DNA of 2,991 nucleotides from Escherichia coli. Its GTDB lineage: Bacteria; Pseudomonadota; Gammaproteobacteria; Enterobacterales; Enterobacteriaceae. Positions within the stretch are counted from its first letter, which is position 1; each line of letters opens with the position of its first letter. The DNA lies in assembly GCF_003334335.1 (NCBI RefSeq), contig NZ_QOWQ01000087.1. The stretch is one strand, 5' to 3'. The position numbers were made by a program, and so were the translations under genes. Of the stretch, positions 1 to 1,062 are shown piece after piece. The notes under the pieces are model-generated. The model did not search any database and was not told the origin of the DNA. It was given only the letters and a program-made list of their open reading frames with translations.

Positions 1-203
1 CTTGCTAAATCTTCCGTCGTGACATCAATGTGACCACGTAGTGACACGCCGTGACATGTCGTGACATTTCGTGACGCACTCACCAGAAGGTGGATATACA
101 CCGCCATCACTGTTGCGATTGGCTGTCCTGAGACCCTGGCAATGGTTCGCCATTTGGGATCATTTGGCATGTCATGCCACAATCTGAGCCAGGCATTAGC
201 CAT
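1..203 (-). CDS. 5' portion of a YdaU-like (DUF1376-type) phage replication-region protein; truncated by the left window edge
   Basis: Minus-strand frame is open from ATG at 203..201 to position 1 with no stop. GAGGTG Shine-Dalgarno lies 5 nt upstream of the ATG. Translation begins MANAWLRLWHDMPNDPKWRTIARVSGQPIATVMAVYIHLLVSASRNVTT..., whose Trp-rich N-terminus I recognise from memory as the Rac ydaU family; this is unverified. Position directly downstream of the ydaS/ydaT-like pair matches Rac gene order. Not in the supplied ORF track, presumably because it is partial. Confidence 0.55.
   Translation of the reverse strand, partial: MANAWLRLWHDMPNDPKWRTIARVSGQPIATVMAVYIHLLVSASRNVTTCHGVSLRGHIDVTTEDLA
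17..78. repeat. Six tandem direct repeats with core GTGAC(A) at 10-11 bp spacing, embedded in the 5' coding region of the YdaU-like gene
   Basis: GTGAC occurs at 19-23, 30-34, 41-45, 51-55, 61-65 and 71-75, giving spacings of 11, 11, 10, 10, 10 bp. Four copies are preceded by C and five followed by A or G. A period near 10.5 bp is not a multiple of 3, so the signal is at DNA level rather than a protein repeat. Confidence 0.8.
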
Positions 204-962: not shown

Positions 963-1062
963 AGCTACTCCTTAGTAAACACAGCAAAGAATACCCGCAG
1001 GTAAACAAAAGTCAATACCCACAGGTTGTTTACCTTGCGGTAATCGCATCTATTATTTACCT
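963..1062. promoter_or_regulatory. Divergent promoter/operator region between the Cro-like and repressor genes, with three TACC-N4-GGTA-type operator sites
   Basis: Sites TACCCGCAGGTA (992-1003), TACCCACAGGTT (1016-1027) and TACCTTGCGGTA (1031-1042). Candidate minus-strand promoter for the Cro-like gene: -35 TTGACT (1015..1010), 16-bp spacer, -10 TATTCT (993..988). Candidate plus-strand promoter for the repressor: -35 around TTGTTTACC (1026-1034), -10 TATTAT (1051-1056) ending 6 nt before the ATG, with no SD, suggesting a leaderless transcript like lambda PRM. Promoter calls are by eye only. Confidence 0.5.

Follow-up and report, generated by a model that had tools for sequence, protein, structure and literature searches.

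Placing a replication origin inside the gene for its own initiator is textbook knowledge for phage lambda, and is not conceptually new. The lambda origin also has a palindrome, and its iteron unit is ~19 bp long. In Bacillus phage SPP1, which encodes the replisome organiser G38P, oriL lies inside gene 38, and there direct repeats stand beside an AT-rich region. Short repeats in more than one place are familiar as well, since satellite phage P4 alpha has type I iterons in both ori and crr, and the plasmids P1, F and R6K each have two iteron sets. The iterons and AT-rich tract of lambda occupy the middle of gene O, and the iterons number four in lambda and six in Stx phages, whose O protein gains 13 residues (PMC7466680). 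A related protein architecture has been described as DopC/DopE in Cellvibrionales and Oceanospirillales, where an O-like protein that ends in a DnaT domain precedes a P-like protein. DopC carries an HTH_36 N-domain, and its authors found neither iteron-like repeats nor an origin at the locus (PMC5509034).

In this study, we analysed a stretch of 2,991 nucleotides of Escherichia coli DNA, hereafter the window, which is 100% identical to positions 1193953-1196943 (reverse strand) of E. coli JE86-ST05 (NZ_AP022815.1). Codons 1-67 of an initiator gene occupy window positions 1..203 on the minus strand, and the gene continues past the left edge. In the extended locus (L001), where window position n corresponds to L001 6000+n, the full gene spans L001 5166-6203 on the minus strand and encodes 345 aa (WP_046623286.1). 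Judging from sequence comparisons, the repeats in this gene are probably initiator-binding iterons that form part of a bipartite prophage replication origin lying within the initiator gene itself. What is distinctive here is that the direct repeats are short and helically phased, that they form two arrays, and that one of these arrays lies within sequence coding for a folded domain. We found no published description of this iteron, origin or family, in a search that left subscription journals largely outside its reach, so that an older account could exist.

The host element is a lambdoid prophage of ~50 kb situated between yccA/tusE and a tRNA-Ser gene. Upstream of the initiator gene, the window carries a ydaT-like gene (272-697) and a cro-like gene (681-962), both on the minus strand, and a DicA-like repressor gene on the plus strand (1063-1482). 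As in lambda, the initiator gene stands in an early operon after cro and cII-position genes. A sigma-70-like promoter, TTGACT-16-TATTCT, at 988..1015 on the minus strand (L001 7015-6988) is a consensus match only and faces the cro-like gene; it is the probable source of an early transcript through the cro-like, ydaT-like and initiator genes, and hence across the arrays. Between the repressor and cro-like genes, in the region of their divergent promoters, a 20-nt inverted repeat with 80% complementarity (989-1008 / 1026-1045, CCGCAGGTAAACAA / TTGTTTACCTTGCGG) overlaps both promoter-like matches and looks like an immunity operator. An inverted repeat with perfect 16-nt arms around a 5-nt loop (TACCCATAGGTATTTA...TAAATACCTATGGGTA) lies at 1525-1561, 43 nt past the repressor stop codon, where it may act as a terminator or as a site for a protein. 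Further to the right, the antisense sRNA DicF is encoded on the plus strand at 2887-2938 (Rfam RF00039, 70.1 bits against a gathering score of 48); dicB follows immediately past the right edge of the window, and ydfA-like genes stand beside DicF in the prophage gene order.

The initiator has a winged-helix N-domain that is joined, through a basic helix and then a linker, to a DnaT-like C-domain. It matches a PHROG annotated as 'replication initiation protein'. Its winged-helix domain is closest to the DnaD N-terminal domain and to a plasmid initiator, and no sequence relatives of this domain were found in the PDB. The C-domain matches the DnaT domain of Pfam (PF17948, E = 1.7e-16, aa 201-266), and DnaT chains in the PDB match the initiator with E-values down to 6.7e-21. 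Because the NCBIfam DnaT match falls under its equivalog cut-off, it is only the domain that is shared with DnaT. When the whole initiator was scanned against Pfam at E <= 10, the DnaT domain alone was returned, with no Phage_rep_O or HTH_36 match for the N-domain, and the SPP1 G38P profile (PF09681) gave no match. Some database records label homologues as 'replisome organiser'. The name 'YdaU-like', used in the initial annotation, suits the C-terminal half of the protein, which resembles YdaU of Rac-SA53, but does not suit the part encoded in the window. Near the start of the gene, a palindrome with two 7-nt arms around a single base (TGGCATGTCATGCCA, window 165-179) overlies the near-invariant WHDMP codons; among homologues, the Asp wobble base is C in 95%, and the His wobble base is split 60/40.

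Directly 3' of the initiator gene lies a helicase loader or helicase gene. At this locus it is a P-like loader of 153 aa (L001 4712-5173; PHROG 109, E = 4.5e-54), whereas Ralstonia phage Firinga has a DnaB-type helicase gene there and pAEv1818 has a downstream gene annotated as 'replicative helicase'. The P-like loader aligns to positions 74-236 of the 236-position PHROG 109 profile, and PHROG 15931 covers initiator and loader as though they were fused. The combination of a DnaT C-domain with a P-like partner is shared with DopC/DopE, but the N-domain here is a different one and the iterons are prominent. The module looks like a phage-borne, origin-competent version of the DopC/DopE C-terminal architecture.

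The first putative iteron array (array 1, window 18..76, taken on the minus strand with the gene) comprises six direct copies of CGTGAC(A) on the plus strand, read as GTCACG on the gene strand. On the plus strand, GTGAC begins at positions 19, 30, 41, 51, 61 and 71, with spacings of 11, 11, 10, 10 and 10 nt. The initial annotation had reported six phased GTGAC repeats at 17-78, and both its coordinates and its spacing of 10-11 nt are correct. The array also exceeds chance. In the whole window, counting both strands, GTGAC occurs 11 times against 4.97 expected, and six of these copies are packed into 57 nt. When copies of any one 5-mer are chained at 10/11-nt spacing, the longest chain in the window has six members, compared with a maximum of three in 2000 dinucleotide-preserving shuffles. 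Tandem Repeats Finder also detects an array here, of period 10, at 41-75.

Array 1 occupies gene offset 128-185 and encodes initiator residues ~43-62 (SASRNVTTCHGVSLRGHIDVTT), most of them in a loop or hairpin of lower confidence (aa ~44-62) between helices 29-45 and 63-70. It had been proposed that the repeat period is out of step with the codons, and indeed the copies fall in all three reading frames: on the gene strand, copies 1-3 read gcG-TCA-Cga (ASR), GTC-ACg (VT) and tGT-CAC (CH), and copies 4-6 read gtG-TCA-Cta (VSL), gGT-CAC (GH) and GTC-ACg (VT). Of the unit originally given, GTGAC(A), the pentamer stands, but the core is one base longer (CGTGAC, or GTCACG on the gene strand), because the flanking G is also fixed. 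This core G at +5 is kept in 88-91% of 179 motif copies, while the A after GTGAC is a preference only. There is indeed a palindrome, GACATGTC, at 53-60, which is simply the junction of two adjacent units (GTGAC-ATGTC-GTGAC).

Most homologues have four copies in array 1, and the six copies seen here are due to a 21-nt insertion at ~41..61 (minus strand), which adds two repeat units and seven codons, TCHGVSL, so that RNVTRGH becomes RNVT[TCHGVSL]RGH. The same expansion is found in prophages of E. albertii and Morganella morganii, and two other loci (L105 and L106) also have six copies, with other spacers. Around 33 nt 3' of array 1, a single inverted core is found at L001 5986-5990 (window -14 to -10). 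It reads GAC-GTG-ACA (DVT) on the gene strand, and the wobble G of its Val codon is fixed in all 17 homologues that have Val at this position. A candidate DnaA box near window 89-100, with two mismatches by eye, is not kept in homologues and was dropped.

A second array of five CGTGAC copies (array 2, L001 5749-5794, window -251 to -206) follows 229 nt deeper in the gene, in the same orientation as array 1, and in it GTGAC begins at L001 5749, 5759, 5770, 5780 and 5790. Arrays 1 and 2 are the sole two GTGAC clusters in ~63 kb spanning the whole prophage, and no further copy of the origin, in the style of SPP1 oriR, was found in these ~63 kb. Directly past array 2, the gene strand reads GACAGATAAAGATACAGATACAGAATTAAA. 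Here a purine-rich (AGATAA/AGATAC)n tract of ~30 nt (L001 ~5720-5748) adjoins the array and is followed by a GC-rich palindrome, CGCGCATGCGCG (L001 ~5693-5706). Array 2 and the purine tract together code for the interdomain linker. Of the 30-nt windows within 2.1-2.4 kb, the one at the purine tract has the lowest stability in 13 of 13 loci, by ~3-6 standard deviations, and this low-stability tract adjoins array 2 and not array 1. Read along the gene strand, the order is thus array 1, ~225 nt of sequence coding for the winged helix and basic helix, array 2, purine tract, palindrome, DnaT-like C-domain and P-like loader.

This anatomy resembles that of the lambda origin in several respects. The elements lie inside the initiator gene, and iterons, a low-stability tract coding for a linker and a palindrome follow each other in the same order. 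In both cases, the N-domain and the iterons make up one specificity module, and the C-domain is paired with a P-type loader encoded directly downstream. The variation in copy number between four and six, by which Stx O gains 13 aa and the initiator here 7 aa, is a further likeness. However, the N-domain does not belong to the lambda O family and the C-domain is DnaT-like. The cores are asymmetric direct repeats of ~6-7 bp, one per helical turn, instead of units of ~19 bp, and they form two arrays ~230 bp apart, the first of which lies in sequence coding for the folded N-domain and not for a linker. With SPP1 G38P, the locus may share a DnaD-like winged-helix N-domain and, as we predict here, initiator binding to repeats in its own gene beside an AT-rich region. 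It is also reminiscent of P4 and the iteron plasmids, where short asymmetric repeats about one helical turn apart form two clusters for one initiator (binding again being predicted here), but those systems have their clusters between genes or kilobases apart and use initiators of other families, whereas here both clusters lie in one reading frame.

Both arrays are retained in homologues from ~25 beta- and gammaproteobacterial species, with array 1 ~128 nt from the ATG. Using one genome per species, we recovered 41 loci in a homologue scan, and those with roughly 56-85% aa identity all have GTCAC arrays at offsets ~128 and ~370-480. Hosts of array-bearing prophages include Bordetella, Chromobacterium, Aquitalea, Rahnella, Pseudomonas, Stenotrophomonas, Serratia, Gilvimarinus, Morganella and Erwinia, and phages of E. 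coli, Pseudomonas and Aeromonas have both arrays at the same offsets and on the same strand. Among close relatives (viral contigs at 91-100% identity), array 2 varies between four and six copies. The distances from array 1 to array 2 across loci are 209, 227, 229, 239, 247 and 319 nt, and because they vary, we make no claim of helical phasing between the arrays. An initiator homologue without arrays is encoded in a Pantoea sp. (L115, 2501-3200); past aa ~105 it has GIY-YIG-type-like sequence (YYVYFVV...YVGISSN), assigned by eye, and this tail may be an insertion or a replaced C-terminus.

Conservation of the repeats extends to bases that the protein does not require. In an alignment of 20 homologues with pairwise nucleotide identities of 63-87%, third-codon positions within the motif have a mean entropy of 0.11 bit, with the major base present in 98% of sequences (n = 7). 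Third-codon positions outside the motif, taken from conserved amino-acid columns, have an entropy of 1.33 bit (n = 53; Mann-Whitney p = 2e-5). The initial annotation had named decay of the repeats at synonymous sites in homologous genes as evidence that would speak against a DNA signal. The result is the opposite, with synonymous sites frozen in the motif and saturated elsewhere. These patterns indicate that the array repeats are a signal selected, and strongly selected, at the level of DNA.

In more distant relatives, the layout is conserved while the motif follows the protein lineage, as is evident from the occurrence of other motifs at the same two positions. One distant subfamily lacks GTCAC and has CGAACGC instead, with a period of 10, in three copies at the array-1 position and two to six (mostly three to five) at the array-2 position, and its variation is limited to the spacer wobble base. 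Members of this class are found in Janthinobacterium, Variovorax, Sphingobium, Collimonas, Acidovorax, Rhodoferax and an uncultured podovirus. Firinga, whose initiator has 39% identity, carries a third motif, GCAACG(C), with four to five copies and then four at the same two positions. The three motif classes track three initiator protein lineages. A purine tract follows array 2 in all classes, as (AGATAA)n, (AGATAC)n, (AGAGAA)n or (GAA)n, and is retained in genes of up to 68% GC and in differing reading frames, so that it encodes, for example, DKDKD, LDKIREE, DRLDKRR or PQIREEE.

The initiator gene is itself a mosaic. Its N-half, including both arrays (L001 ~5725-6203), forms one module, with nucleotide identities of 83% to E. 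coli phages Evi and Tritos, 68% to Pseudomonas phages and 64% to an Aeromonas phage. The C-half is common to ydaU of Rac-SA53, PPompW and TL-2011b, whose N-domains differ. The junction (L001 ~5722-5746) falls on the conserved purine tract. This tract is also common to otherwise unrelated N-domain modules, such as that of Rac-SA53 ydaU, and it may serve as a recombination joint between N- and C-halves. Other N-domains on the same C-domain have their own repeats ahead of the same junction. Repeats of their own also lie within the genes of other initiator types that occupy this genomic slot: the initiator gene of PPompW (L130 ~2050-2250) has six ACCCAAA copies, and an HTH-type gene in E2348/69 (L128 ~2510-2570) has four TTGACCCGTCAA copies with a 15-bp period. 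The E2348/69 prophage closely matches the window in YdaT (91% aa identity), cro (99%) and repressor (100%), but its replication gene is different, and the region of that gene has no GTGAC or GTCAC. Moreover, a YdaT homologue is absent at most array-bearing loci. By linkage, the arrays thus go with the initiator N-domain rather than with the immunity genes or those at the cII position.

The locus combines the features that characterise an origin of the lambda-ori kind, namely at least three repeats in the initiator gene, an easily melted tract, a downstream loader, and repeats that are selected as DNA and co-vary with the specificity domain of the initiator. The proposal that the repeats are iterons or origin elements superimposed on coding sequence had been made from the first array, and is now supported by the second array, the purine tract, the palindrome, the frozen synonymous sites and the co-variation of motif and initiator. 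From this anatomy we infer the following course of events. Array 1 would be the promoter-proximal half of a two-part iteron set, providing sites for the initiator encoded there. Initiator molecules would bind along one face of each array in a head-to-tail row, one to every helical turn, and the resulting complex would stress and then open the adjoining purine tract. Host DnaB would then be recruited by the DnaT-like C-domain together with the P-like protein. The transcript of the early promoter would cross the element, as happens at lambda ori.

Alternatively, array 1 could be a control element bound by the initiator, with array 2 and the purine tract acting as the origin proper, a division of labour that we regard as possible but doubtful. 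Such an element might work by initiator titration or handcuffing, or by blocking transcription or translation of the gene's own 5' region in a negative feedback. Plasmids with two iteron sets use one of them for control, as in titration or handcuffing in P1 or F. Consistent with this, array 1 is ~230 bp from the low-stability tract that array 2 abuts, and it is preceded by the early promoter and by 128 nt of the initiator's own coding sequence. However, conservation is just as strict for array 1 as for array 2 in all three iteron classes, which points to an indispensable role, and in Stx phages two extra distal iterons are reported to be necessary for efficient replication (PMC7466680). The two roles of array 1, as origin component and as control element, do not exclude each other.

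The initiator is the predicted binder of the arrays on grounds of linkage. In principle, the arrays could instead be bound by a host factor, by the P-like protein, or by a protein with which another element, for defence or exclusion, targets this replication module. We consider this very unlikely. The motif switches together with the initiator N-domain lineage across Enterobacterales, Pseudomonas, Burkholderiales and Sphingomonadales, and a host factor would not be expected to change its specificity together with a phage protein. Nor is the downstream partner a constant, since it may be a P-like protein, a DnaB-type helicase or the product of a gene annotated as 'replicative helicase'.

An even less probable reading is the one that the initial annotation had offered as its alternative, a plus-strand antisense promoter of the pRE/paQ kind directed back towards the repressor. 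In such a promoter, GTGACA would serve as -35-like elements or as phased sites for a YdaT/CII-like protein. At the CII sites of lambda, direct repeats recur every 10 bp within a coding region, GTGACA agrees with TTGACA at five of six positions, and the upstream ydaT-like gene matches PHROG 163, 'CII-like transcriptional activator'. Nevertheless, no sigma-70-like promoter match was found on the plus strand in window 1-200, and the only plus-strand promoter-like match in the initiator gene is weak and lies within array 2. The same YdaT, cro and repressor occur in E2348/69 beside a replication gene without GTGAC or GTCAC, and array-bearing loci of other genera mostly lack a YdaT homologue. The presence of four to six copies, with a second array of three to six, is also unlike the two half-sites of a CII promoter. 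Given the linkage seen in E2348/69 and the lack of a plus-strand promoter-like site near the array, we reject the antisense promoter. Finally, although the encoded residues ASRNVTRGH..VT are themselves conserved, the chance that the repeats are a by-product of a repeated peptide or of coincidence is negligible, and this reading is rejected, because the motif recurs every 10-11 nt and is read in all three frames, its third positions at four-fold and two-fold degenerate codons are fixed, against saturation outside it, it reappears in an otherwise variable linker, and the shuffles rule out chance.

If the repeats are the iterons of an origin bound by the initiator, the part of the protein that reads them is of interest. 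The residues that separate the iteron classes are confined to the array-1 loop, the linker encoded by array 2 and the basic helix at aa ~117-124, and no class-discriminating residues were found in the canonical recognition helix. Motif and loop are paired as GTCACG with ASRNVTRGH, CGAACGC with ASNATERGRT, and GCAACGC with ASTATQGNADATRGN. It is conceivable, although we think it unlikely, that the array-1 loop (aa ~44-62) helps to recognise the iterons, in which case the site and its reader would reside in the same bases and would switch together. The loop differs between classes because the DNA motif differs, and cause and effect are therefore inseparable in these pairs. If true, such a self-referential loop would be a built-in source of new, mutually incompatible replicon specificities.

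The module is widespread. Of 5426 complete E. coli genomes, 721 carry it, among them O157:H7 strains with several copies, and it also occurs throughout Gamma- and Betaproteobacteria, in temperate phages as well as prophages. As for use as a plasmid replicon, only eleven records in PLSDB match, mostly apparent prophages in large replicons or circular phage genomes, and they tell little on this point. If confirmed, the arrangement locates the replication origin of a widespread prophage replication module, and the signature of two phased arrays, purine tract and palindrome would allow origins to be annotated for this initiator family. It would also be a case of dual coding in which an array of DNA sites, predicted to be bound by protein, is held fixed within sequence that encodes a folded domain. 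The three motif classes offer material for studying how initiator and iteron specificities change jointly. Moreover, the proposed origin predicts replicon incompatibility between co-resident prophages that carry iterons of the same class.
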